From Candidatus Sulfotelmatobacter sp. (GTDB taxonomy: Bacteria > Acidobacteriota > Terriglobia > Terriglobales > Acidobacteriaceae): a stretch of DNA of 64,000 bases. Location: the NCBI GenBank assembly GCA_050012155.1, contig JBEKHS010000005.1, positions 21,117 to 85,116 of the forward strand, written 5' to 3'. The notes beneath the pieces were generated by a model. It was not told the origin of the DNA and did no database searches. It saw only the letters and a program-made list of their open reading frames with translations. This document shows, piece after piece, positions 35,439-49,007 of this stretch (the stretch's first letter is position 1; each line of letters begins with the position of its first letter). The position numbers were made by a program, and so were the translations under genes.

Positions 35439-38309
35439 TCACTGCTTCTCATGCCCCGCACTCAACAAATTCACATACAGCCGTACCGCTCCCGGCACTC
35501 CTGCCGGCAACTGCCGGAAGAACGCGTATCCCGAGTAGATATAAATTCCCTTGCCGTACTGCGCCTGCAGCAGTCCACCCTTCTGCGCGTCTTCGCCGGG
35601 ATCGTGGCAGCTCAGCAACGGCTTAAAATGATCGTCCCATTTGTCCATGAAATAGAGTCCGCGCTCCTGTACCCAGCCGTCGAAGTCGCGAGCCGTGATC
35701 GTATTCGGATAATGAAACACTCCGTCCTCCGGCGCGAGAATCTCCACTGGAGCTTCTTCCACCGAAACCCGTGCGCGGCTCAGCTCCGCCGGATACGGCG
35801 TAAAGTGCCCGCTATTAAAATCTCCCACCCCGGTGTTGTATTGCACCACCAGCGTCCCGCCAGCCGAGACGAAATCGAGCAGTTTTTGATTATTCGCAGC
35901 CACGTCTTTTTGCGTATCGTAGGCTCGAATTCCCAGCACGATGGTTTGGTATTGGCTAAGATTCTCACCCGCCAGCTTCTCCGGCGGAATTAGGGTCACA
36001 TCCATCCCTACTTGCTTCAACACGGTGGGAATGTCATCACCCGCGCCCATGATGTAACCGACCTTCAAATCGTGGGGTGCTTTCACGTCCACAATACTTA
36101 CCTTCTGTACCGCCGGCTGGTAATAGTAGAAGCTGCCCAGATCTTCGCGCGTCACCAGCGTATAGCCCTCGCTGAACTTCTCGCCGCCGGCGTCCAGCAC
36201 CGCTCGAATTTTCGCTCGACCCTTCTGCAATCCAGCAGGGAAGACCTTGAACTGAAAATCCTGTTTCTCTTCGCGATGCGTGAAATCGGCTTCAAATTGT
36301 TCCGGCTCCGACTTCCAACCTGCCGGCAATTCCAACTTCAGCACGCCACGCGTCTCGCGGTTCAAATTGCTGGTTACGCCAACGGCCACGGTCGAACTGG
36401 AACCGTTGTGCGTCGAAATGACCTGCGTCCCCGGCTCCAATGCAACCGAAAACGCCGGCACCACCGCTAGCGGGCGCTCCCGTTCCATCCCCGCGTCATC
36501 GATGAATCGTGTGACAACAGTCGTTCCAATGCCATTTTTGACCGCCACACCGCCCGCCGAATACTCCACGTGCGCACGCAACGGCGGCGGCGGAAACGGC
36601 AGCGTCGCATACTTCTCATCGTCGATGTGATTGATGCTCTCCGTGTCGGGATCATCGCGATGCCAGTAGGGCCGCGTGTAAGCCGCATCCTTCGGCACCC
36701 GCAAGCGAAAAACCACGCTCAGGTTGTCTCCCGGCTCGATCGCAACTCGACGCGTCTTCTCCGAAATCGTCGTCCACCCCTCTGGCACCTCCAACTTCAA
36801 GCCCTCCAGAAATAGCCGTTCTTTCGATCCATTATGAAAACCAACCCGGACCAGAAACTCCTGCCCCGGCGAAACCGTAGTGATTGCGTCGGCTTCCTTC
36901 GGCAGTTCCTTTGCTACTTCTTTTGCCGGTCGTCCCTCCGGCTCCGCCCGCAGAATCACCGTCGCTTCCAGGCCCACATTCAAGGCGTCGTTGAGCGCTG
37001 TCTCCGCCTGCTCGCGCTTTTCATCAATCTGCATCAGCAGGTCTGACTTCGCCATTTCGCTCACTGCGCTCTTGCTAACCTCGGCACGTGCCTGCTCCAA
37101 CTCTGCCGCAACCCCCATCAGCGGCCTCGCCGCCGCAGACGGATCGTTCCGCTTAGCATCCTCGCTCGCCTCCGCAACTCTTCCCGCGATCTCCGTCAGT
37201 TCTTGCCGCAACCGCGGAACTTTTGCTTCCTCCGCTCCCAACCTTGCCGCCAATCCCGGCAGCGTCGTATCGATCCCCTCAAAGAAATCCTTCTCGTGCC
37301 CGTCTTTATCCAGCTTGGCAGGCCTCACCGAATCCACCAGCTTGTAAAACGTGAACCGGTCTCCCGGATCGACCGTCCAATTCGCCGAGCCCTGCGACAG
37401 TTGATGCCGCAATCCCTTCATCGCAAACTGCACGTACGATCCGCCCAGATCCGGGTCAGGCTCGCCCGTGTTCAGCTTCACCGTCCAATTTCCATCCGGA
37501 CAAGTCATCGCCCCAAAGCCGCAAACGTTCCCGATGTAAAGCTTCTTGGCCTGCCACGGGGCGAGCCCCTGCGCAATCTGCTCCGGAAACCGCTTCGGAT
37601 CGGCTGCCGCGCGGAACGCCTCCCTCGTCAGGATGCTTGAAGCCTGATGATGCCCATGCCCATCCCGATCGGTTCCGGAAAAGCGCGCCACCAGCACATC
37701 CGGACGAAACGTTCGAATCACCCGCACCATATCCGCCAGCGCCACATCATGCCCGCCCCACTTGGCGAAAGTTTCCTCGGCGCTTTTCGAAAATCCAAAA
37801 TCGGCTACGCGCGAAAACCGCTCCTGCACGCCGTAATATTCGTCCGCGGCCAGCAGCTCCAGAGTCCGCAACACGCCCAGGACATCCGACAAGTTACTGC
37901 CCACCTTATTCTGCCCACCCTCGCCGCGATTCAGCGTCATCAATAGCACGCTCGCCCCGCGCCCGCGCGCTTCCAGGGTCAGCATCCCGCCATCTTCGTC
38001 GTCCGGGTGCGCCACCGTTTGCATGAGCCGCGCGGTCGTGCTCAAACGCCGCAGTTCAAGCCGCAGGCCGAGGACTCCTTTATCTTGTGGAATTTCGGGA
38101 GGAGATCCCTGATAGGGAAGCCGAGGAAATCCCGGCAGGGTCACAGATTGATTTTCAGCAACTGGCGCGGCCGAAGCCGCGGGTGCGGGTTTTTCCCTAC
38201 CCTGTTGCGAAGCCGCAAGCGGGGAATCCCCAACCTCCAGCGACACGAGTAGCAATAGGATTAAGAATGAATTTCGCAAAACTGAATTTCGGATAGAACG
38301 CCCGACCAA
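35439..38309 (-). CDS. PIG-L/LmbE-family deacetylase fused to a large C-terminal ThuA/GATase-like region
   Basis: AHPDDEDGGMLTL...LNRGEGGQN (PIG-L). C-terminal IVLGIRAYD...GGTLVVQYN. The start is uncertain: TTG at 38309 is chosen to avoid overlapping the kinase, but the ORF is open to 38513. Confidence 0.8.
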   Translation of the reverse strand: MVGRSIRNSVLRNSFLILLLLVSLEVGDSPLAASQQGREKPAPAASAAPVAENQSVTLPGFPRLPYQGSPPEIPQDKGVLGLRLELRRLSTTARLMQTVAHPDDEDGGMLTLEARGRGASVLLMTLNRGEGGQNKVGSNLSDVLGVLRTLELLAADEYYGVQERFSRVADFGFSKSAEETFAKWGGHDVALADMVRVIRTFRPDVLVARFSGTDRDGHGHHQASSILTREAFRAAADPKRFPEQIAQGLAPWQAKKLYIGNVCGFGAMTCPDGNWTVKLNTGEPDPDLGGSYVQFAMKGLRHQLSQGSANWTVDPGDRFTFYKLVDSVRPAKLDKDGHEKDFFEGIDTTLPGLAARLGAEEAKVPRLRQELTEIAGRVAEASEDAKRNDPSAAARPLMGVAAELEQARAEVSKSAVSEMAKSDLLMQIDEKREQAETALNDALNVGLEATVILRAEPEGRPAKEVAKELPKEADAITTVSPGQEFLVRVGFHNGSKERLFLEGLKLEVPEGWTTISEKTRRVAIEPGDNLSVVFRLRVPKDAAYTRPYWHRDDPDTESINHIDDEKYATLPFPPPPLRAHVEYSAGGVAVKNGIGTTVVTRFIDDAGMERERPLAVVPAFSVALEPGTQVISTHNGSSSTVAVGVTSNLNRETRGVLKLELPAGWKSEPEQFEADFTHREEKQDFQFKVFPAGLQKGRAKIRAVLDAGGEKFSEGYTLVTREDLGSFYYYQPAVQKVSIVDVKAPHDLKVGYIMGAGDDIPTVLKQVGMDVTLIPPEKLAGENLSQYQTIVLGIRAYDTQKDVAANNQKLLDFVSAGGTLVVQYNTGVGDFNSGHFTPYPAELSRARVSVEEAPVEILAPEDGVFHYPNTITARDFDGWVQERGLYFMDKWDDHFKPLLSCHDPGEDAQKGGLLQAQYGKGIYIYSGYAFFRQLPAGVPGAVRLYVNLLSAGHEKQ

Positions 38310-38476
38310 GCGATGAACAGGCCCCTCCCCGCGACTCGCAACGTTGCAAGATCCCAAATATTTCACCCTACAAGGATGGGGCCTAACCCCGCTCCGACGC
38401 AAATTCTTTCCCGGCGAAGCCTGGAAACGCCTGGGAACCGATGACTGAAAACAGAGAGTTGCAGCCCGGAACCGCC

Positions 38477-40882
38477 TTACTTTCCGAGTTCCTCTTTCAG
38501 CGTCTCCTGGCAAGCGCTGCCCGCCGTCAGTACCTCGTTAAAAGCCGGCTCCTTGCGCAGGTTCTTCAGCAGCGGATCACCGAGCAGCGCGGAATACGCG
38601 CAATAATTTTGCTGCACCGCCGCTTTCAGCAGACGCAACGCCGGCCCGCTCTGTCCGCAAGACGCCATCAGCGCGCCCACGTGGTACCACGCCTCCGGAT
38701 CGGGTTCCATCATGGTCGATGACTCCGCCTCCCGCACAATCTCGTCCATGTTGGACGGCCGCTGAGTCTGCGTGCACGCCGTCAGCAGGTCCCGGTGATA
38801 CGCAGGAGCCGTGGCCACATACTTCACGCTTTCTCGCGCCAAGCCCACATTCCCCGCCGCCAGATAGACGTACGGCGTTACCCATGCGGCCCATTGCGAT
38901 CCGGAATCCAGATGCACAAAATCCATCGCCCGGTCCGGCTGTCCCAGCTCCAGAAACGCCCAGGCGCACGATCTGAAATCGAAGTTCCCCGGGTCCAGCG
39001 AGCGAGCGGTATTGCACTCTTGCGTCGCCTTTTCCTGCATCCCCGCATAACGCAGCACATAGCTAAGCGCGAAATGCGCATCGGCGCTCTGCGCACGCCG
39101 CTTCACCAGATCGTTCGCGGCCACGTAGGCTCGGCCTAACTCACCCCGCTCCACGCGGTTTGTGATCAAATGGCTCGCCGCCACCATGCGGTTCGGATCC
39201 AGCGCAATCGCCCGCTCGAACGCGGCATTCGAGCGCTGGAACATCTGCTCGCCGCCTCCGCCGTAATATGAATCGTAGTAGCACCTCAGCCCAAGTGCCT
39301 CCCACGCTGGCGCAAAGTTCGGGTCTTCGCCTACAACGTGTTCCAGAACTGCGATCGCATCTTTGTTCGGGCCCGGATCGTGAGGCAGGGCGAGACTATG
39401 CAGGTACAGGTCGTACGCTTCCTGACTCTTCGGGCGCGAGGCCGTGCTCAAGTCTCCTCCGGTGACGCCCAGCGCGGGCAAAAGCCCCTGCTGCACCTGC
39501 CGGCTCAGTTGCCCCTGGAGCGCAATCAAATCGTTCACCCCTGCCGTGACAGTGGCTTGCCACAGCGAGCGATCACTGGCGACGTCAATCGCCTCGAGCG
39601 TCACCGTCAACTGATCCCCTTGGCGCAGAAAGTGTCCCGTCAACAGCTTGCCCACGTGCAATTGCTGCCCCAGTTTCCGCGGATCGAAGTCCGCTTCCAC
39701 ATACTTCCGCGTCACCGAGGAAGGCCGCACATCCAGCGAACGCGAATAGGTCAACGCGCTGGTCAGTTCGTCCGCCAGCGCGAAGCGCAGGTAATCCACA
39801 GCGAAGTCTCCATTCAAGTTCTGCAACGGCAGCACCGCGATCGCATTTTCTTGTTCCGCGCTCGCCATCGACCGGTGTTTCAGCCAGTAGGCTCCCACCG
39901 CAGCCAGAACCGTCACCAGCAGCGCCGCCATTCCCAGAAGCAGCCAGAATTGCCAGCGGCTCCCGGTTCGGCCAAACGTCTTGCTGGCCACCCGCAGCTT
40001 CGCGACTTGCAGTCCGCTCCTTACCTGGCCGGACTCGGTCTCGCGCTTCAACTGCTGCAGGTCTGCCTTCATCTGCGTGGCGCTTTGGTACCGCGCCTTG
40101 CGGTCCTTCTCCATCGCCTTGCCGATGATGCCTTCAAGCTCGACCGGCACCTTCGGATTCAATTCTCCCGGTGGCACCGGCTTGTCATGCAGTACCGCAT
40201 CCAGGGTCATCAGAGAGTTCTTGCCGGTAAACGGTTTTTTCCCCGTCGACATTTCGTACATCACCACGCCAAACGAAAACAGATCGCTGCGGAAATCGAT
40301 TTCCTCGCTGCGTGCCTGCTCCGGTGACATGTATACGGCCGTCCCGGGAATCACCCCCACCGCGGTCAACGAATTGTCCGCCGCCGCTCCGTCGCTGTCG
40401 GTACCGATGTTGTGCAGCAGCTTGGCCAGCCCGAAGTCGAGCACTTTCACCTGCCCGCTGGGAGTCAAAAAAATGTTCGCCGGCTTGATGTCGCGATGCA
40501 CGATGCCCTTGGCGTGCGACGCCGCCAACGCGTCCGCTACCTGGATGCTGATATCGAGCACGCGCTCCGTCTCCAGAGCATGACCCGAGATGCATTGCTT
40601 CAGGCTTTCGCCCTCCAGCTTCTCCATCACAATGAAGGGATGCCCGCCGTTATCCTCAATGCCGTGAATGGTGCAGATGTTGGGATGATTCAGCAGCGAC
40701 GCCGCCCTCGCCTCCCGCGTGAATCGTTCCAGCGATTTGGGGTCGCCGGCGAGGTTGTCGGGAATGAATTTCAGTGCCACGTGCCGGCCAAGCTTCAGGT
40801 CCTCGGCTTCGTAGACCACACCCATACCACCGCCCCCGAGCTTTCCCAGGATGCGGTAGTGGGACACTGTCTGGCCAATCAT
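38477..40882 (-). CDS. Ser/Thr protein kinase with a TM segment and a C-terminal TPR-like domain
   Basis: GKLGGGGMGVVYEA, VALK, HRDIKPANI, DFGLAK and SPEQ motifs. 801 aa. Confidence 0.9.
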   Translation of the reverse strand: MIGQTVSHYRILGKLGGGGMGVVYEAEDLKLGRHVALKFIPDNLAGDPKSLERFTREARAASLLNHPNICTIHGIEDNGGHPFIVMEKLEGESLKQCISGHALETERVLDISIQVADALAASHAKGIVHRDIKPANIFLTPSGQVKVLDFGLAKLLHNIGTDSDGAAADNSLTAVGVIPGTAVYMSPEQARSEEIDFRSDLFSFGVVMYEMSTGKKPFTGKNSLMTLDAVLHDKPVPPGELNPKVPVELEGIIGKAMEKDRKARYQSATQMKADLQQLKRETESGQVRSGLQVAKLRVASKTFGRTGSRWQFWLLLGMAALLVTVLAAVGAYWLKHRSMASAEQENAIAVLPLQNLNGDFAVDYLRFALADELTSALTYSRSLDVRPSSVTRKYVEADFDPRKLGQQLHVGKLLTGHFLRQGDQLTVTLEAIDVASDRSLWQATVTAGVNDLIALQGQLSRQVQQGLLPALGVTGGDLSTASRPKSQEAYDLYLHSLALPHDPGPNKDAIAVLEHVVGEDPNFAPAWEALGLRCYYDSYYGGGGEQMFQRSNAAFERAIALDPNRMVAASHLITNRVERGELGRAYVAANDLVKRRAQSADAHFALSYVLRYAGMQEKATQECNTARSLDPGNFDFRSCAWAFLELGQPDRAMDFVHLDSGSQWAAWVTPYVYLAAGNVGLARESVKYVATAPAYHRDLLTACTQTQRPSNMDEIVREAESSTMMEPDPEAWYHVGALMASCGQSGPALRLLKAAVQQNYCAYSALLGDPLLKNLRKEPAFNEVLTAGSACQETLKEELGK

Positions 40883-41502: not shown

Positions 41503-42714
41503 CTATTCGCGGTTTTCCGGCCACAGCCCCGCCGACGCTCCTACCCACTCCATATTCCGATTGTGATCCACGCCCATCATCAGCCCACGCCCCATGCGAA
41601 TGATCGTCATCGCCGCCTGCAACTTCTCCAGCCACACATACATCACTCGCACTTCCGCTTTCGTCTCGCCAAACGGAGTCTCGATCAACGGCTCAAAATG
41701 CAGCCGCTCCTGCAGAATGTACTCCCCGCGCTTCTCCGCCGGAATCGCCTCGATATCCTCTTTCGTCGGCGCAATCACCACCCCCAGCCCGGCAAACGAA
41801 TACAGCGGCTTCAGCGCGTAGTTCTGCAAGTCGTCGGGAATCCGCTCCAGCCGGTCGAGGAACCAGGTCTTCGGAACCGATTCATGCCGCAGATACGGAA
41901 TGGAAAACTTGCTGATCCGGAAATACCAGTTCGGATGCCCCGCCCACTCCACGTCAAGATCGTCGCGCCAATCGAATCCAAGCTTCACCTTCTTGCGCTG
42001 CAATTCGTCGACAATCGCGCGGTTATAGATCCGCCGGATCGGCACCCGGCCTCCATTACGCTCGTAGTAAAGCTGGCGTCCGTGCTTCCTGATCGCCTCA
42101 ATATCGACCGTCCTCACTCCCAGCATCTTTTCGGTCGCCAGGAAATCCGGCAGCGTCTTCTGTTCTTGCGGGCGAATCTCCATCAAAATCACGTTTTCGG
42201 GATCATGCGTGCCTACGATCGCCGACCGCAAGAGCTCACGATAAGTTCTTTCATCGAGGCCGCCGAGGAAGAAACGCAATCCCTTCCCGCCTTCGAATCT
42301 GTCCAGGCCATAGACATCGATGTAGCTTTGCGCCATCGCCACCTGATACGCATAGAGGGAAGGGAAGGCCTGCAACTCCACCAGCTTCGGCTGCAACGCG
42401 CCGTTGGCATCGCGCACCAGTCCGAAATCCACCTGCACAAACAGAGGGCGCGCCGGCTCATTCGGAACGCGAAATTCCGCCGGAATCGTCGCACTCGACC
42501 GGGCGATATACTCCGGACTCTCGACCAGTTGCCGGATCAATACCTTCCCATCCTCCACCATTCGATCCAGAAGCGACTTGGGAAAGAAGCAGGGAGTCTC
42601 CGACAATCGGAACTGTACATGCGTTCCGCAAACGTCCTCGATCCGCCGCAAAAATTTCTGATATTTGCCGGGAGTGAAGCCGGCGTTGAATTGTTTTCTG
42701 AAGGAGGGAATCAT
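41503..42714 (-). CDS. Glutathionylspermidine-synthase-like / circularly permuted ATP-grasp amidoligase (predicted)
   Basis: VQVDFGLVRDANGALQPKLVELQAFPS resembles the pre-ATP-grasp R.D...LLE.NADTP segment. LKPLYSFAGLGV and YILQERL are ATP-grasp-like. Confidence 0.65.
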   Translation of the reverse strand: MIPSFRKQFNAGFTPGKYQKFLRRIEDVCGTHVQFRLSETPCFFPKSLLDRMVEDGKVLIRQLVESPEYIARSSATIPAEFRVPNEPARPLFVQVDFGLVRDANGALQPKLVELQAFPSLYAYQVAMAQSYIDVYGLDRFEGGKGLRFFLGGLDERTYRELLRSAIVGTHDPENVILMEIRPQEQKTLPDFLATEKMLGVRTVDIEAIRKHGRQLYYERNGGRVPIRRIYNRAIVDELQRKKVKLGFDWRDDLDVEWAGHPNWYFRISKFSIPYLRHESVPKTWFLDRLERIPDDLQNYALKPLYSFAGLGVVIAPTKEDIEAIPAEKRGEYILQERLHFEPLIETPFGETKAEVRVMYVWLEKLQAAMTIIRMGRGLMMGVDHNRNMEWVGASAGLWPENRE

Positions 42715-42738
42715 AGCGGAAGCGATGATGATGGAATA

Positions 42739-43089
42739 TCACTCGCGGATTTCCATATTGCGAATGAGCCCGTCTTCTATCGAATATACGTGTTCGACCA
42801 TCCGATCCAGAAGGGTATTTCCATTAAGATCGCGGACTACCTGGTGAACTCCGACCACCACTCGGCCGGTCGCGTCCACGTTGAAACTCACAGGCTCGAC
42901 GTGCGGATCGATGATGCGCGGCGTCCAATACTCCCGCACTCCAGCCCGGCCATGAACCGTGCCACCTTCCATGCCGTTCGGCCACTCCACATCAGGCTGC
43001 ATGGCCGCTAGGGCGCCGTCGATGTTGCGAGCGTTAAAAGCCTCGTAAGTCTTGCGGAGCACAGCAACTTTGGATTCTTCGACAATCAC
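42739..43089 (-). CDS. NTF2/SnoaL-like protein
   Basis: LRKTYEAFNARNIDGALAAMQPDVEW ... cone-like fold pattern. 116 aa. Confidence 0.75.
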   Translation of the reverse strand: MIVEESKVAVLRKTYEAFNARNIDGALAAMQPDVEWPNGMEGGTVHGRAGVREYWTPRIIDPHVEPVSFNVDATGRVVVGVHQVVRDLNGNTLLDRMVEHVYSIEDGLIRNMEIRE

Positions 43090-43107
43090 GATCCGAAACG
43101 CGCCGCC

Positions 43108-44211
43108 CTACGCCTCCACCAAAAACTTACCATCCTGCATGATCTGCTCGTCGTCCACCCAGATGTTGAATTTCCTTCCCACAACATCAATATGAGTCGA
43201 CGAATCCCACTCCGCGCCGGTATGCGCCCCGTAAGGATTTCCGAAGGCAATATGCACTCCGGGGTATTTCTCATCCTGCAGAATTTGCCCAATCACGTCT
43301 TTCAAGTCGATATTCGTTCCGATGGCAAATTCGCCCACGCGGTCGCTGTTTTCATCCGTGTGCGTGTACTTCCAGAAATCGTCTTCCAGTTCGCGATTCT
43401 CCGAGTGCGCTTCGGTCAGCCGGTTCTTCTTCACGCGGATGGTCAGCGGAGTCTCGCTTAAATTGCCAAACTTTGCGCACAAATAATCGCCCACCACGCC
43501 GTCGATCACGAAGGTTCCGTTCACTTCGCCGGGCGTGGTGAAAATCTCCCCGCCCGGAAGATTCCCCCACTTCTCTGGAGTAATGATTCCGCTGGTCTTC
43601 AGCCAGCGGTAATTGTGATTCAAGTCGGCGGTCAGGTCAGTTCCGGCGGCCGTCTTCGCCCGCACCCGGCTCGCATTGCGCACCATGGCCACAACTTTCG
43701 CGCTGAGCCGGTCCACCTTTTGAAAATCGGCGCGCATTCCTTCCAGCATGATCTGCCGGTTGATGTTCACCATGTGCGCGTGCCGTATCTTGCGCCGGTT
43801 GACCACGTCCGTCATCTGCATGCGCGTGCGCAGTTCACCCCTCTGCGCCTGCACCGCAAAGATCGAAACCTGGCTGGTCTCCAAATCGTCGAGCACTTCG
43901 CGCGGCAAATCTCTCAGCGGACGCTCCGCCAAATCCTCCAGTACCCATGCGCGGTACGGCGACCCTAGTTCATCGAGCTCATGCGCGATCGCCGCAGCAA
44001 TCTCAAGTGTGGCCTCATCGGTGATGACGCAAACTTTCTCCTCCGACTGCACCCGCAGGCATACCCGCACCGCATTGCGCGCCCCAACCGAAAATTCCGG
44101 ATCAAACGCAATGTGATTGGAACGGTTGCCCCATCCTTCCCGCGTTCGTTGGGGGTGGCCGGGGATTTTGACCTGGCCTACGGCCTTGACTCCCTCGACA
44201 GGATTACTCAT
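43108..44211 (-). CDS. M29-family aminopeptidase (AmpS/PepS-like)
   Basis: NLPGGEIFTTP, GEFAIGTN and HIAFGNPYG motifs. The ATG overlaps the upstream TAA (TAATG). Confidence 0.85.
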   Translation of the reverse strand: MSNPVEGVKAVGQVKIPGHPQRTREGWGNRSNHIAFDPEFSVGARNAVRVCLRVQSEEKVCVITDEATLEIAAAIAHELDELGSPYRAWVLEDLAERPLRDLPREVLDDLETSQVSIFAVQAQRGELRTRMQMTDVVNRRKIRHAHMVNINRQIMLEGMRADFQKVDRLSAKVVAMVRNASRVRAKTAAGTDLTADLNHNYRWLKTSGIITPEKWGNLPGGEIFTTPGEVNGTFVIDGVVGDYLCAKFGNLSETPLTIRVKKNRLTEAHSENRELEDDFWKYTHTDENSDRVGEFAIGTNIDLKDVIGQILQDEKYPGVHIAFGNPYGAHTGAEWDSSTHIDVVGRKFNIWVDDEQIMQDGKFLVEA

Positions 44212-45350
44212 TACCCTACTTTCCTCACCGCAGCCGGCTCGTCTTCTTCCAGGCCGGTCTCCGTCTCTTCAATTGCATAGTCGACAACTTTCTTCAAGTC
44301 CCCCGTTTCCTGATACACGCGCAACTGCCGGTCCGCGCCGCTGCCTCGCTCGAGCATGGTATGGATGTAGTTCAACTCCTCGCGCGAGTCGAGTTCATCC
44401 ACTACGTCGTCCACAAACTCCAGATACTCGAGAATCAAATCCCGCGCCGGCACTTCCGTCTGCTTGCCAAAGTCGATCAGCTTTCCGTCCATCCCATAGC
44501 GTGCCGCGCGCCACTTGTTTTCCATGAGAAGAGCGCGCCGGTACAAGCGGAATCCCTGGTTCGCCGTATGCAGCTTATACAGCTTCGCCACCGTCGCCTG
44601 AATCAGAGCCGCCAGCGCAATCGTCTCATCCGCGCGCATCGGGATATCGCACACCCGGAACTCAATCGTATTGAAGAACGGATGTGGCCGGATGTCCCAC
44701 CAGATCTTCTTTGCATTATCAATACAATTGGTTTTGATCAGCAGCTTGATGAAATTTTCGTATTCACCCCAGCTGGGAAAGTAATCCGGAATATTGGTCC
44801 GAGGAAATTTGTCGAATACTTTGCACCGGTAGGACTTCAGCCCGGTGTTCATCCCCAGCCAGAACGGCGAATTGGTCGAAAGTGCCAGCAGGTGCGGCAA
44901 GAAATACCGCGCATGATTCATCATGTGGATCGCCGTTTCGCGATCCTCGATCCCGATATGCACGTGCAAGCCAAAAATCAGATTCGCCCGCGCCACCAGC
45001 TGCATGTCCTCGACAATATGCTTGTACCGGTCGTCGGGATAAATCTCCTGTACCCGCCAGTCCGCAAACGGATGCGTCGCCAGCGACGCCACCCGCAGCC
45101 CGTTCTCCTTGGCCAGCTTTACAATATCGCGCCGCAGCTCTTTTACCTCTGCTTTGGCTTCCTTGATGTTGCTGCACACGCCAGTCCCAACTTCCACCAC
45201 CGACTGGTGCATCTCGGCCTTCACCCGCTCCTGCAGCAACAGCTTGCCCTTTTCCAGCAGCTCGGCGTGAATATGCGACCGCAGATCCCGCGTCTCCGGA
45301 TCGATCGTCTGATATTCCTCTTCGATCCCGATATTGAAAGTAGGCTTCAT
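44211..45350 (-). CDS. Carboxylate-amine ligase (GCS2/YbdK family)
   Basis: FNIGIEEEYQTID ... GLHVHIG ... SPFW are characteristic GCS2 motifs. Confidence 0.85.
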   Translation of the reverse strand: MKPTFNIGIEEEYQTIDPETRDLRSHIHAELLEKGKLLLQERVKAEMHQSVVEVGTGVCSNIKEAKAEVKELRRDIVKLAKENGLRVASLATHPFADWRVQEIYPDDRYKHIVEDMQLVARANLIFGLHVHIGIEDRETAIHMMNHARYFLPHLLALSTNSPFWLGMNTGLKSYRCKVFDKFPRTNIPDYFPSWGEYENFIKLLIKTNCIDNAKKIWWDIRPHPFFNTIEFRVCDIPMRADETIALAALIQATVAKLYKLHTANQGFRLYRRALLMENKWRAARYGMDGKLIDFGKQTEVPARDLILEYLEFVDDVVDELDSREELNYIHTMLERGSGADRQLRVYQETGDLKKVVDYAIEETETGLEEDEPAAVRKVG

Positions 45351-45479
45351 AATGCTGCGTGGCGCGGGCGCCCTCGTCCGTGAAATCTACAGGACTCCCA
45401 ATCCCCGATTTCGCATTCATTTGCGAAGGGCGGGCAAATCAAGCCATAACAGTATAACAATCAGGCTAGGAAGGGATAA

Positions 45480-45830
45480 TCAGAAACTGTGGTGCTTCTG
45501 GAACCAGGACAACCACATGAAAAGGCCCACAAGAAGAAGCATCAATCCACTCAGGCAGATGGATAGGATGGAGAACAAGCTGCGCATCCAATGTCCGGGC
45601 GCAAATGCCCGAAACAGCAAGACGATCCCGGTTACCTGGCCAATAAGAATCGCGCAGACACCCCACACCACGAACAACTCGGTCAGGCCGCCCGCGACAG
45701 CGCCAATGCCGGTAGCTTTCTGCCTCGAGATGCCGATGAGGGCGTTTGCAAGTCCGATCCCGATCGGGATCCACGGCACCCACGCCAGCGCCACACCCCA
45801 AAGAAAGCGTTTCTTCTTTACGTCGTCCAC
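45480..45830 (-). CDS. Small membrane protein, MotA/TolQ/ExbB-like motif
   Basis: Three to four TM helices. ATGIGAVAGGLTELF resembles the proton-channel signature. Confidence 0.55.
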   Translation of the reverse strand: MDDVKKKRFLWGVALAWVPWIPIGIGLANALIGISRQKATGIGAVAGGLTELFVVWGVCAILIGQVTGIVLLFRAFAPGHWMRSLFSILSICLSGLMLLLVGLFMWLSWFQKHHSF

Positions 45831-45876
45831 TGAATCTCCGGATGGCTAGTCCCTGCCTTGGGGGCCGAAGCCATTC

Positions 45877-46884
45877 CTACTTCGCCACCTTCCCCCGCTT
45901 CCGCTCCGCTACCCAGCCCGGCTCGCCCTTGCGCTTGTCTTTCGCCGGAGTCCCATTCAGAAACCCAGACCACCGCAACTCCTGCGCCGGATTCTCCCCG
46001 CTCATCGCCATCTTCACTGCCATCTCCGCCACTGCGTTTACAATCCAGTCAAAATTTTCCTGCCCCACCGACGTAATCTCCGCATCCGGCGCCGGATTCA
46101 GAAAATCAATCGCATAAGGCACTCCAACCTCCACCGCAAACTCCACCGTGTTCAAGTCGTAGCCCAGCACGCGACACAGGGTCAGAGCATCTTTTTCAAT
46201 CCTGGCCCGCAAGGCCTCTGATGACGGCGGAGGGTTCCCCTTCACATAGCGCTCATGATGCGGCGCCCGCGGGTCGTACTTCATGATATGTACTTTTTCC
46301 TGACCAACCACATAACACCGGTAATACTCTTCAAACACCACGCCATGTTGCAGCGTCATGCACAAATCGCCGGTCTGGTTGTAGTGCTGGAAAAATTCCT
46401 CCGGAGAATGCACGTGATAAACGTGCTTCCACCCACCGCCGGAATAAGGCTTCAGAAAAGCAGGGAAGCCGACGTAATCGAACAGCTCCTGCCAGTTCAA
46501 CGGATAAATCAGATTCCGCATCGACAGATCGGTCGTGCCCTCGGGATGCTTGTTATGCGGCAGAATCACCGTCGGAGGAATCGCGACGCCCAGCTTGTGC
46601 GCCAGCGCATAGTTAAAAAACTTGTCGTCCGCCGTCCACCAGAAAGGATTATTGACGACAATCGTTCCGTGCAGCACCGCATTCTTCAAATAGGCCCGGT
46701 AGAAGGGAATATCCTGCGAGATGCGGTCAATGATCACATCATATTTCTTGGGCTCATCCATCCTAATTCCGCCGATCTTCACAAACTCGGCCTCGACCCC
46801 CTCGATGCCCATCGAGTTAACCTTCTCCACCACCGCCGGCGGAAACGTATTCTCCATGCCAAACAAAATTCCAATCTTCTTCAC
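45877..46884 (-). CDS. ATP-grasp ligase (RimK/GshB-like)
   Basis: FPAFLKPYSGGGWKHVY and VVFEEYYRCYVVG are typical ATP-grasp core strands. 335 aa. Confidence 0.8.
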   Translation of the reverse strand: MKKIGILFGMENTFPPAVVEKVNSMGIEGVEAEFVKIGGIRMDEPKKYDVIIDRISQDIPFYRAYLKNAVLHGTIVVNNPFWWTADDKFFNYALAHKLGVAIPPTVILPHNKHPEGTTDLSMRNLIYPLNWQELFDYVGFPAFLKPYSGGGWKHVYHVHSPEEFFQHYNQTGDLCMTLQHGVVFEEYYRCYVVGQEKVHIMKYDPRAPHHERYVKGNPPPSSEALRARIEKDALTLCRVLGYDLNTVEFAVEVGVPYAIDFLNPAPDAEITSVGQENFDWIVNAVAEMAVKMAMSGENPAQELRWSGFLNGTPAKDKRKGEPGWVAERKRGKVAK

Positions 46885-46905
46885 GACGCAATCTCCATTT
46901 CTAAG

Positions 46906-46970
46906 TTGTCATCCTGAGCGGAGTGACTGCTTCGCAAAGCGAAGCAGTTACGCAGTCGAAGGATCCCTAC
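46906..46970. repeat. Nested palindromic REP-like element (GTCATCCTGAGCG ... CGAAGGATCC family)
   Basis: Inner perfect 9-bp stem CTGCTTCGC-aaa-GCGAAGCAG inside an outer ATCCT/AGGAT pairing. Intergenic. Related in outline to 59113-59163. Confidence 0.5.
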
Positions 46971-47014
46971 TCTCTCGATCGCTCGATGCGTACGACCAAC
47001 GACTAACGACGGTT

Positions 47015-47725
47015 CTAAAAATACTTCCCCGCCATCCTCTGCCAAAGCGGCCAATCGTGTTTCGAGTTATCTCCGTAAACATCCAGCCAGTGCGGCACGG
47101 CCTTGCCATTCAGAATCGCCGACAACTTCACGTTCTGGTCCAGACACATGTCCCAATCCGCCGATCCCAACACAATCTTCATCTGCCGGTAGCGGCTCAG
47201 GAACCAGTCATCGTGCTGATTCGGCAAATAATCTATCGGGCAATTGAAGTAGCAGTCGTCGTCATAATATCCATCCAGAAACTGATGGATATCAAACGCC
47301 CCGCTCATGCTCACGCAGTGCGTCACCACATCCGGATGCTTAAAGGCAAAATTCACCGCATGATAAGCCCCAAAGCTGCAGCCCGTTATCGCCAGCCGCG
47401 GCATTTGATTCTTCCACCGGATGAACGGCAGAAACTCATGCAGAATGTAGCGCTCATATTGCAAGTGCCGCAGCACGCGCACCCGGGGGTGAACGCCTTT
47501 GTTGTACCAGCTTTCGGTATCGACGCCATCCGGGCAAAACACCTGCAGTTCGCCGCGCTCAATCTTTGGCGCCAGCACGCCAATCATCCCGCGGTCTTCA
47601 TATTCGAAGAACTTTCCCATGGAGGTCGGAAACACCAGCAGCGGCGTTCCCGCATGTCCGAAGACCAGAGCCTCCATGTCCCGGTTCAGTTCCTGGCTGT
47701 ATCCCTTGTGATATTCGCGATTCAT
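47015..47725 (-). CDS. Esterase-family alpha/beta hydrolase
   Basis: LVFPTS ... ITGCSFGAYHA nucleophile-elbow variant. 236 aa. Confidence 0.8.
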   Translation of the reverse strand: MNREYHKGYSQELNRDMEALVFGHAGTPLLVFPTSMGKFFEYEDRGMIGVLAPKIERGELQVFCPDGVDTESWYNKGVHPRVRVLRHLQYERYILHEFLPFIRWKNQMPRLAITGCSFGAYHAVNFAFKHPDVVTHCVSMSGAFDIHQFLDGYYDDDCYFNCPIDYLPNQHDDWFLSRYRQMKIVLGSADWDMCLDQNVKLSAILNGKAVPHWLDVYGDNSKHDWPLWQRMAGKYF

Positions 47726-47825: not shown

Positions 47826-49007
47826 GTGATACGAGATATGTTGGGGAGGCTTGCTAAACTCGTTCCGCGCTCCGCCCCCGTCATCCTGCTCGTGCTCACG
47901 CTCGCCGCAGTTAGCGGCTTCGCTGCCGTGAGCCATCTTGTCTCCCGCTACAACGCCAACCAGCAGGCCCGCGGGCGTAAACTATACGCGCAAGGGCAGT
48001 CTGCCGCCGCAGCCGGTCGCTACGTCGACGCGATCGAGGCCTTTCGCGCTGCCCTTACCTGCGATCCTACGAACTCGCAGTACCAGCTCAGCCTGGCCCG
48101 CGCCTTGCGCGACAGCAATGATCCCCGTTTACTGGATGAGGCTGAATCCTACCTCGTGGCCCTCTGGCAGCGTGCCCCGCAGGATGCCGCCGTAAATCTC
48201 GCTCTCGCGCGTGTCGCCGCCCATCGCGGTTCTATAGACGACGCCACTCGTTACTATCACAACGCCATGTACGGAGCGTGGAACTCTGATCCCGATGCCA
48301 ACCGCAACCGGGCTCGCGTTGAACTCATCCAGTTCTTGCTCGCGCAAAAAGCCTCGGCACAGGCTGAATCCGAGATCATGGCTCTCGCTACTGCCTTGCC
48401 TCCAGACCCCGCCTCGCATCTGCAGGCCGCGCAACTTTTCACGCAAGCCCACGACTATGCCGGGGCTCTATCGCAATATGAGGAAGTCCTCCGCCTGAGT
48501 CCCGATAACACGGCTGCGTTAGCTGGCGCTGGAGAAGCCGCCTACCGTTCCGGCAACTACCCTGCCGCCCAACGCTACTTGCACGCCGCGGCCAACGTCA
48601 ATCCGCAGGATGCCGAGGCCCGCCAGTTGCTCGCCACGACTGACCTCGTTCTCAGCGCGAATCCCTTCCACAGCCATGTTTCCGATGCCGAACGGAACCG
48701 TCGCATCACGGCCGCCTTCGTCCAAGCCGAAAACCGCCTGACCGAGTGCGCCCAGCAAACCGGCGTTGATCTCAAAGCCGCTGCCACTTCCCCCGCATCC
48801 CCGCTTCTCAGCCTGCAGTCGCGCTGGACCGCCACCAACCCGGACCTGGCTCACCTCCGCTCCCCCGGAGAAACCGACCTGCCCGATGCTGTCATGGACG
48901 TTGTATTCCAAATCGAACAGCAAACCGCTTCCATCTGTGGCCAGCCTCAAGGCTTCGATCTGGCGCTGCTCCTGATCTCTCAAAAACGTGAGGCGCTGAG
49001 TCAATGA
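47826..49007 (+). CDS. TPR-repeat membrane-anchored protein
   Basis: N-terminal TM segment, then repeated TPR-like helices (AIEAFRAALTCDPTN, ALSQYEEVLRLSPDN). Confidence 0.7.
   Translation: MIRDMLGRLAKLVPRSAPVILLVLTLAAVSGFAAVSHLVSRYNANQQARGRKLYAQGQSAAAAGRYVDAIEAFRAALTCDPTNSQYQLSLARALRDSNDPRLLDEAESYLVALWQRAPQDAAVNLALARVAAHRGSIDDATRYYHNAMYGAWNSDPDANRNRARVELIQFLLAQKASAQAESEIMALATALPPDPASHLQAAQLFTQAHDYAGALSQYEEVLRLSPDNTAALAGAGEAAYRSGNYPAAQRYLHAAANVNPQDAEARQLLATTDLVLSANPFHSHVSDAERNRRITAAFVQAENRLTECAQQTGVDLKAAATSPASPLLSLQSRWTATNPDLAHLRSPGETDLPDAVMDVVFQIEQQTASICGQPQGFDLALLLISQKREALSQ

Follow-up and report, generated by a model that had tools for sequence, protein, structure and literature searches.

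Three ATP-dependent carboxylate-amine ligases, each of a different fold type, act in the GshA/GshB/GspS and trypanothione pathways, and in glutathionylspermidine synthetase (GspS) and trypanothione synthetase (TryS) the last ligase is preceded by an amide hydrolase, in the form of an N-terminal amidase domain. Similar combinations of enzymes have been found by computation: the amidoligase-peptidase systems of Iyer, Burroughs and Aravind (2008) bring together glutamine-synthetase-fold and ATP-grasp ligases with peptidases of unrelated folds, including GAT-like ones, and were predicted to make glutathione-like peptides (PMC2588565). The "trio" behind the NAGGN osmoprotectant (the ATP-grasp/GNAT protein Ngg, the amidotransferase AsnO and an M42 peptidase) is likewise a route to a small-peptide solute that combines an ATP-grasp ligase, an amidotransferase-type enzyme and a metallo-aminopeptidase. 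Here we describe a gene cluster at positions 41503-47725 of a 64,000-nucleotide stretch of DNA from Candidatus Sulfotelmatobacter sp. (contig JBEKHS010000005.1, positions 21,117 to 85,116; hereafter the window), which encodes ligases of the same three fold types together with hydrolases. The cluster comprises seven open reading frames (ORFs), all on the minus strand, five of which, termed EST, GR, GCS, M29 and CP (Table 1), form a unit that is common to at least three phyla, the Acidobacteriota, Bacteroidota and Ignavibacteriota. We see an even chance that these five core genes constitute one operon by which a small amide-linked metabolite is built step by step, without the ribosome and at the expense of ATP, and which supplies dedicated hydrolases for its turnover. 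In contrast to the GshA/GshB/GspS route, the genes of the cluster all lie in one operon, their substrates are proposed from precedent and their hosts are predicted users of bacillithiol.

GCS is, by its family matches, unambiguously placed among the YbdK-type GCS2 carboxylate-amine ligases, which have the glutamine-synthetase fold. It scored 224.7 bits against PF04107 (cutoff, 21; E = 2e-66) and 554.6 bits against NF010039 (cutoff, 371), it matched the structure of Escherichia coli YbdK (1r8g) with an E value of 2e-50, and its GhExE Mg/ATP signature (G8-I-E10-E11-E12; the signature is defined in PMC2588565) was at least 95% conserved among 71 homologues. Its scores fell below the cutoffs of all the glutamate-cysteine ligase equivalogs (373.5 against 409 for NF010043, and likewise for NF010042, NF010044, NF010045 and TIGR02048), and this first ligase is of the GCS2/YbdK type, in contrast to GshA, which is a GCS1 enzyme. 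In vitro, YbdK can act as a γ-Glu:Cys ligase (Lehmann 2004, cited in PMC2588565). GCS resembles YbdK in its Pfam and NCBIfam family and in the GhExE signature but differs from it in belonging to a distinct NCBIfam equivalog, NF010039, and in lying within a multi-ligase operon. To our knowledge, ybdK of E. coli has no established role in vivo.

GR matched no Pfam family, and its sole NCBIfam match was TIGR00768 (rimK_fam), at 24.9 bits against a cutoff of 143.4 (E = 1.2e-5). A GR profile matched the ATP-grasp domains of biotin carboxylase (3ouu; 1.4e-4) and of the D-Ala-D-Ala ligase Ddl (3r23; 2.1e-4) over residues 129-260; homologues were found in 130 loci, at 52 to 94% identity, and the invariant residues are K145-P, G149-G-G (G149-G151), E248, D260 and N263. 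These matches and motifs point to a divergent classical (non-permuted) ATP-grasp protein, of a family that has no Pfam model. The cluster had first been noticed in a reading of the DNA alone (the original prediction), which called this protein RimK/GshB-like; the ATP-grasp part of that label stood and the family-level part did not. GR had no RimK or GSH-S_ATP match in Pfam, and in hhalign comparisons with E. coli RimK and GshB, a weak test in which a profile with an Neff of 1.8 was set against single sequences, the probabilities were 2.1% and 0.9%, respectively, so that we dropped the label. GR thus also differs from its counterpart in the GshA/GshB/GspS route by failing both the GshB and the RimK family tests.

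Single-sequence searches with CP returned no Pfam, NCBIfam or PDB match; there was no match to GSP_synth, CP_ATPgrasp_1/2 or GSH_synth_ATP, and what Pfam returned up to an E value of 10 was noise. A profile of 50 diverse homologues did match YgiC (7uk8; E = 1.8e-4) over about 80 columns, with an hhalign probability of 91%. For structure prediction, an alignment of 24 sequences that were 85 to 93% identical gave a model with a pLDDT of 35, which was discarded, and a deeper alignment of 70 sequences (38 to 93% identity), to which Chitinophagales homologues had been added via a profile of distant representatives, gave an AlphaFold (AF2) model with a pLDDT of 88.9 and a pTM of 0.89. When this model was used as a Foldseek query, the top 35 matches (E = 8e-16 to 3e-8) were all glutathione synthetases, GspS, TryS, YgiC, YjfC, 3n6x or Cp1B (8fbz, 8e-16; 1m0w, 5e-15; 7uk8, 1.7e-14; 3n6x, 3e-14; 2io7, 1.4e-11), whereas the best classical ATP-grasp structure reached an E value of only ~0.1. 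The K302-P-L...G-x-G loop is preceded, towards the N terminus, by an ExQ motif (E113). On the evidence of the model, CP is predicted to be a circularly permuted ATP-grasp protein of the structural clade that holds the eukaryotic glutathione synthetases, GspS and YgiC, and its family, which comprises 1335 clusters at 50% identity, is described by neither a Pfam nor an NCBIfam model. The GspS-like fold that had been proposed for the 403-aa protein was borne out in this way and, with it, the assignment of three distinct ligase folds (YbdK-type GCS2, classical ATP-grasp and permuted ATP-grasp).

Several of the structural neighbours of CP are well described. YgiC and YjfC are stand-alone proteins of ~390 aa with the circularly permuted ATP-grasp fold; they are peptide-spermidine ligases (Pederick 2023, cited in PMC11762307), and the physiological substrate of YgiC is unknown (PMC11762307). 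YgiC is the nearest relative of CP by sequence profile and is also close in Foldseek (TMt, 0.62), but the sequence similarity is confined to the ~80 columns around the K-P-L...G-x-G loop, CP lacks the GSP_synth match, and ygiC adjoins tolC-ygiB, unlike CP. The eukaryotic-type glutathione synthetases (the human and yeast enzymes and homoglutathione synthetase) share the permutation and gave the top matches to the model (8fbz and 1m0w; TMq, 0.58 to 0.62), but CP is only 11 to 14% identical to them, is 60 to 80 residues shorter, has no GSH_synth_ATP match, and is bacterial and operon encoded. Foldseek also paired CP with GspS (2io7) and TryS (2vpm).

The two remaining core proteins are predicted hydrolases, as had been proposed. 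EST scored 33.2 bits against PF00756 (cutoff, 22), and G115-x-S117-x-G119, D192 and H223 were at least 95% conserved among 46 homologues, which make it a serine α/β-hydrolase of the PF00756 "putative esterase" family that has kept its Ser-Asp-His triad. M29 scored 59.3 bits against PF02073 (cutoff, 27), and E222, E294, H320, H340 and D342, which we take to be the metal ligands by analogy with AmpS, were at least 95% conserved. Its phmmer matches in the PDB were NicX (7cn3; 1e-6) and AmpS (1zjc; 3e-3), so that it stands at a similar distance from the dioxygenase NicX and from AmpS, and by family membership it is a putative M29-family metallo-aminopeptidase-like hydrolase. The core catalytic signatures were conserved to at least 95% in all five core proteins.

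The original prediction had named conservation of the neighbourhood as its own refutation test, and the neighbourhood proved to be conserved in two independent sets. The first was drawn from GTDB species genomes with the 403-aa CP family as the seed, which gave at least 585 confirmed relatives; the best 80 loci and two more, 82 in all, were compared by tblastn with the proteins of the window. The order EST, GR, GCS, M29, CP, on the same strand, was found in 44 to 57 of these loci (Terriglobales, Acidobacteriaceae and Bryobacterales), and the flanking genes were not kept (a kinase in 12, ClC in 4 and a TPR protein in 3). The second set was metagenomic, was seeded with the 335-aa GR family, starting from an Ignavibacteriaceae protein, and comprised 80 contigs with G+C contents of 32 to 70%. 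In the 40 contigs that extended for 4.5 kb or more downstream, GR was followed by GCS in 35 and by CP in 24, and the order was always GR, GCS, then a GATase-fold protein (GAT), M29 or nothing, and then CP. The gene order held from the Acidobacteriota to contigs with 32% G+C, over which the identity of CP falls to 33 to 45% and the flanks have all changed. Within a phylum, GCS2 identity was 66 to 93%, and the median intergenic gaps in the cluster were -1 to 61 nt. The three ligases are the invariant core, and the hydrolases vary; EST was present upstream of GR in 44 of the 82 loci from genomes and in 27 of 63 from metagenomes.

Two of the seven ORFs in the window stand outside this unit. The hydrophobic membrane ORF had no family match (only DUF3433, below the cutoff, at E = 0.0099) and a homologue in a single genome locus of the 82 (L003; 58% identity). 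It had been labeled MotA/ExbB-like, a reading that we abandoned after finding no MotA_ExbB match in Pfam up to an E value of 10. The other ORF is NTF2-like, as predicted (PF12680, SnoaL_2; 45.5 bits against a cutoff of 27), but it had a homologue in none of the 82 genome loci (in L003, the locus most closely related to that of the window, there is only a gap of 134 nt at that place), and we rejected it as a member of the pathway. In a further relative, L001, unrelated inserts are found, at different positions. Both the membrane ORF and the NTF2-like gene are lineage-specific inserts, which leaves five genes in the conserved unit, and it is this core that remains of the seven-gene operon originally described.

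The slot just upstream of CP is of particular interest. In other lineages the position of M29 is filled by a class-I GATase-fold cysteine hydrolase (GAT) of ~278 aa, which retains the full class-I triad, C107/H210/E212. Between GCS and CP, the same 40 metagenome contigs held GAT in 23 cases and M29 in 3, and never both together; M29 occupies the slot in 8 metagenome loci. GAT occurs in the Bacteroidota and Ignavibacteriota, where one Ignavibacteriaceae genome locus has another gene in the M29 slot, and four high-GC contigs have CP without a hydrolase, leaving the three ligases alone. In all four of the Chitinophagales loci that have no other cluster genes nearby, GAT lies directly upstream of CP. 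The fact that GAT and M29 never occur together, and that some clusters have neither, suggests that they are interchangeable hydrolases, which implies that the slot encodes a hydrolase. GAT-like neighbours of carboxylate-amine ligases have previously been read as thiol peptidases (PMC2588565). The arrangement recalls GspS and TryS, in which an amide hydrolase precedes the last ligase, but differs in that the hydrolase is M29 in the window (GATase-fold elsewhere), is encoded by a separate gene and is not a CHAP domain. The alternation of M29 and a GATase-fold protein in one slot is a clean case of non-orthologous displacement, and one that is biochemically testable.

In two Chitinophagales loci (L084:8024-9151 and L085:5952-7064), an M42 aminopeptidase, a UbiA-like membrane protein of 306 aa and a 150-aa ORF precede the GAT/CP pair. 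The M42 neighbour in L084 gave a weak match, far below the cutoff, to TIGR03106, which recalls the NAGGN trio; that system differs from the present cluster in its ligase families, in having a GNAT, and in its GATase, which is of class II rather than class I.

How might the five proteins act together? The proposal of small-metabolite assembly starts from the observations described above (the folds, catalytic residues that are conserved, short intergenic gaps and a gene set that recurs across phyla), and it takes its substrates, the order of its steps and the roles of its hydrolases from precedent in the respective families. The YbdK-type GCS2 enzyme would activate a carboxylate as an acyl-phosphate and join it to the amine of an amino acid, its characterised relatives using the γ-carboxylate of glutamate; the classical ATP-grasp enzyme would then add another residue in the manner of GshB, and CP would couple the resulting carboxylate to a further amine, either of an amino acid or of a polyamine, in a reaction like those of glutathione synthetase, GspS and YgiC. 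The hydrolase encoded just upstream of CP, whether M29 as here or the protein with the GATase-fold Cys-His-Glu triad, might reverse or edit the product of CP, in a role analogous to that of the amidase domain of GspS, and the PF00756 serine hydrolase might degrade or de-acylate the product or an intermediate. The involvement of γ-glutamyl, thiol or polyamine chemistry is suggested only by analogy. The cluster as a whole would be of a multi-ligase ATP-dependent peptide/amide assembly type.

We favored small-molecule chemistry over a peptide that is made by the ribosome and modified after translation (RiPP) or protein tagging because, in each of the three ligase families, the relatives that have been characterised link small carboxylates with small amines by way of acyl-phosphates, and because no conserved precursor or target gene accompanies the cluster and no riboswitch was found. 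In the compact operons, whose gaps measure -1 to 61 nt, no small ORF that could encode a precursor peptide is conserved and there is no room for one, in keeping with the original prediction, which had seen no precursor gene; no target-protein gene is conserved in or beside the cluster, and a precursor gene beside the ATP-grasp gene, the mark of a RiPP of the graspetide type, was not found.

Several considerations weigh against the assembly of a small metabolite. None of the five core proteins has a known substrate, the physiological role of YbdK is unsettled, and the order of steps is pure analogy. CP occurs without the other cluster genes in 16 loci, which implies that it can work without them nearby, and pairs of GR and GCS without CP within 8 kb also exist. 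Two to three hydrolases for three ligases exceed what simple biosynthesis would seem to need, and a reversible modification or a catabolic route would fit them equally well. Finally, the very high conservation, exemplified by GCS2, suggests a housekeeping function but does not say which.

One alternative, to which we give a low probability, is the reversible tagging of proteins or peptides, in which one or more of the ligases would add amino acids to a C terminus or side chain, as RimK does on ribosomal protein S6, TTLs on tubulin and PafA with Pup, and M29, GAT and the esterase would remove them. The approximate provision of one hydrolase per ligase (the pairs EST/GR and M29/CP) would suit an on/off modification, the conservation is of housekeeping level, the one NCBIfam match of GR is to rimK_fam, and the Pup ligase has its closest relative in GCS2 (PMC2588565). 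That rimK_fam match, however, reached 24.9 bits against a cutoff of 143, with an hhalign probability to RimK of 2%; the structural neighbours of CP are all small-molecule ligases; and, as noted above, neither a tag gene nor a target gene is conserved in or beside the cluster.

We also consider it unlikely that the cluster serves a catabolic or salvage route, in which amines or amino acids would be γ-glutamylated or ligated in the manner of PuuA and PuuD, or a peptide or poly-amino-acid reserve would be formed and drawn upon, the peptidases playing the leading part. Some features do lean this way: a GATase-fold hydrolase beside a ligase resembles PuuD and PuuA, the M42 aminopeptidase joins the GAT-CP pair in the two Chitinophagales loci described above, a second PF00756 esterase is associated with the cluster in 32 loci, and there is a CP homologue with a fused Na+/solute symporter, suggesting that the substrate is imported. 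Against this, the cluster lacks any conserved oxidase, dehydrogenase or transaminase of the kind that a Puu-like route would require, three ATP-consuming ligases would be costly, and it is the ligases, not the hydrolases, that make up the invariant core.

A final amidation, in which CP would activate a carboxylate and GAT would supply glutamine-derived ammonia to give a peptide amide, as in CarA/CarB and MurT/GatD, with an unrelated role for M29 in the Terriglobia, appears very unlikely to us. The class-I triad of GAT is complete, GAT is strictly adjacent to CP, and the pairing of an ATP-grasp enzyme with a class-I GATase has a precedent in carbamoyl-phosphate synthetase. M29, however, which fills the slot in the window and in 8 metagenome loci, cannot deliver ammonia; the mutual exclusion of GAT and M29, together with the clusters that have neither, points to interchangeable hydrolases; and comparable GAT-like neighbours of ligases have been read as thiol peptidases (PMC2588565). 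Mere synteny of functionally unrelated genes is most improbable, since although CP and the GR/GCS pair are each found alone and the upstream gaps of 46 to 130 nt in the window could hold promoters, the gaps are often below 50 nt and the order is kept across the whole range of G+C content and CP divergence described above while all flanks change.

The window has a high G+C content (~58%) and comes from a Terriglobia acidobacterium, of which the closest public relatives are Candidatus Sulfotelmatobacter and Acidoferrum metagenome-assembled genomes. The coordinates of the ORFs agree with the seven same-strand genes and the spacing first described. The GCS2 stop codon and the M29 start codon share 1 nt (TAATG), the gap between M29 and the NTF2-like gene is 18 nt and that between the NTF2-like gene and CP is 24 nt; further upstream, the gaps are 129 nt (EST/GR), 46 nt (GR/membrane ORF) and 130 nt (membrane ORF/GCS). 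Scans for promoters and terminators gave nothing beyond shuffled expectation, and no riboswitch or leader RNA was found in the 7.5-kb region. A match to Hammerhead_HH9 within the esterase coding sequence (47076-47200, minus strand) was weak, reaching 21 bits where the gathering score is 52 (E = 0.16), and was judged to be due to chance.

Table 1. Features of the ligase-hydrolase cluster in the window
Feature	Position	Strand	Basis or remark
EST, predicted esterase, PF00756 family, 236 aa	47015..47725	-	First gene of conserved core
REP-like dispersed element (GTCATCCTGAGCGGAG, hairpin, GTCGAAGGATCC)	46908..46966		Stem 46926-46948
GR, predicted classical ATP-grasp ligase, 335 aa, GTG start	45877..46884	-	Profile and motifs
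Hydrophobic membrane ORF, 116 aa	45480..45830	-	Insert, outside conserved core
GCS, predicted YbdK-type GCS2 carboxylate-amine ligase, 379 aa	44211..45350	-	PF04107, NF010039
M29, predicted metallo-aminopeptidase-like hydrolase, 367 aa	43108..44211	-	PF02073
NTF2-like (SnoaL_2) ORF, 116 aa	42739..43089	-	PF12680; insert, outside conserved core
CP, predicted circularly permuted ATP-grasp ligase, 403 aa	41503..42714	-	AlphaFold model and Foldseek

The wide EST/GR gap had led the original prediction to doubt that the esterase is co-transcribed with the other genes. In the window the gap is indeed long and holds a hairpin, but in the compact relatives the esterase clearly falls within the predicted operon, because the median gap there is only ~50 nt. 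The hairpin has a perfect 10-bp stem and a 3-nt loop, and as it lacks a U-tract, we ruled it out as an intrinsic terminator. It belongs to a dispersed element built of GTCATCCTGAGCG(G/A)AG, a variable internal hairpin and GTCGAAGGA(T/C)C, whose 13-mer was found in five related loci (L011:6323, L035:6341, L003:10585, L008:16712 and L009:17430), lying in the EST/GR gap in three genomes (the window and two of these loci) and at unrelated sites in three others; the window contains no second copy. Given this recurrence, the label "REP-like" (after repetitive extragenic palindromic sequences), under which it had first been noticed, is a fair one. The element stands outside the pathway.

A longer second PF00756 esterase (X4; ~275 aa, 76 to 106 bits, divergent) lies next to the cluster in 32 loci of both low-GC and high-GC lineages (e.g., L020, L050, L111, L117 and L143), directly upstream of EST/GR and on the opposite strand. 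The window has no X4 and at that place encodes a TPR protein (47826-49007). Membership of X4 in a neighbouring TonB-receptor unit was thought less likely, as X4 keeps to the cluster while the other neighbours change. On the other side of the cluster, downstream and on the same strand (35439-40882), are genes for a Ser/Thr kinase of 801 aa that has TPR repeats and for a PIG-L-family deacetylase-like protein of 1024 aa, which are syntenic in close relatives only (the kinase in 12 of the 82 loci).

Some homologues of CP have unusual contexts or architectures. Four of them (P0121, P0123, P0135 and P0137) have N-terminal extensions of 155 to 190 aa with a Sec-signal-like start, which is odd for an ATP-dependent enzyme, and P0132 is the homologue with the C-terminal Na+/solute symporter (SSF) domain; apart from that one SSF fusion, no Pfam domain was found in the extensions and fusions. 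P0325, 78% identical to CP, bears the JGI name "limonene-1,2-epoxide hydrolase", an NTF2-fold enzyme, and the name may have been carried over from an adjacent or fused SnoaL-like gene such as that of the window (Table 1). In six Acidobacteriaceae loci (L055, L064, L072, L080, L050 and L066), a 111-aa PilZ-like ORF and the gene for a LuxR-type response regulator lie downstream of CP, regardless of the presence of the remaining cluster genes, and in four from the Blastocatellia (L056, L060, L062 and L068) CP lies alone between LysR and RuvX-MltG.

Public databases give the cluster no functional name. Its proteins appear there as "alpha/beta hydrolase-fold protein", "hypothetical protein" or "RimK-type ligase-like", "carboxylate-amine ligase", "aminopeptidase" and "hypothetical protein", and in the literature searched we found no paper or experimental work on this gene combination, although an earlier computational listing (e.g., in the survey of Iyer et al. 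2009) is possible. The original prediction had known of no characterised pathway with this composition, and neither that literature nor the database names supplied one.

Within small-metabolite assembly, a more specific and rather doubtful idea is that the operon makes and recycles an undiscovered low-molecular-weight γ-glutamyl thiol or thiol-amine conjugate in the Acidobacteriota, Bacteroidota and Ignavibacteriota, either an analogue of glutathione or glutathionylspermidine or glutathione itself made by non-orthologous enzymes. The PF00756 hydrolases would then be S-acyl-thiol hydrolases comparable to S-formylglutathione hydrolase. For the host phyla, the use of bacillithiol derivatives and the absence of gshA-B have been predicted (PMC6282198), which makes a glutathione-like product less expected and, if true, more interesting.

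Two of the three ligase families of the cluster, those of GR and CP, have no curated model in Pfam or NCBIfam, and their members are "hypothetical proteins" in thousands of genomes. The Terriglobia, Bacteroidota and Ignavibacteriota are among the most abundant bacteria of soil, sediment and freshwater, and a three-ligase operon that is nearly unchanged across these groups points to an unidentified housekeeping small molecule, for which a redox buffer, a compatible solute, a polyamine conjugate and a nitrogen store are candidates. Knowing the product would give names to these ligase families and a physiological context to the YbdK-type ligases, and it would test whether bacillithiol is the only thiol cofactor in these phyla.

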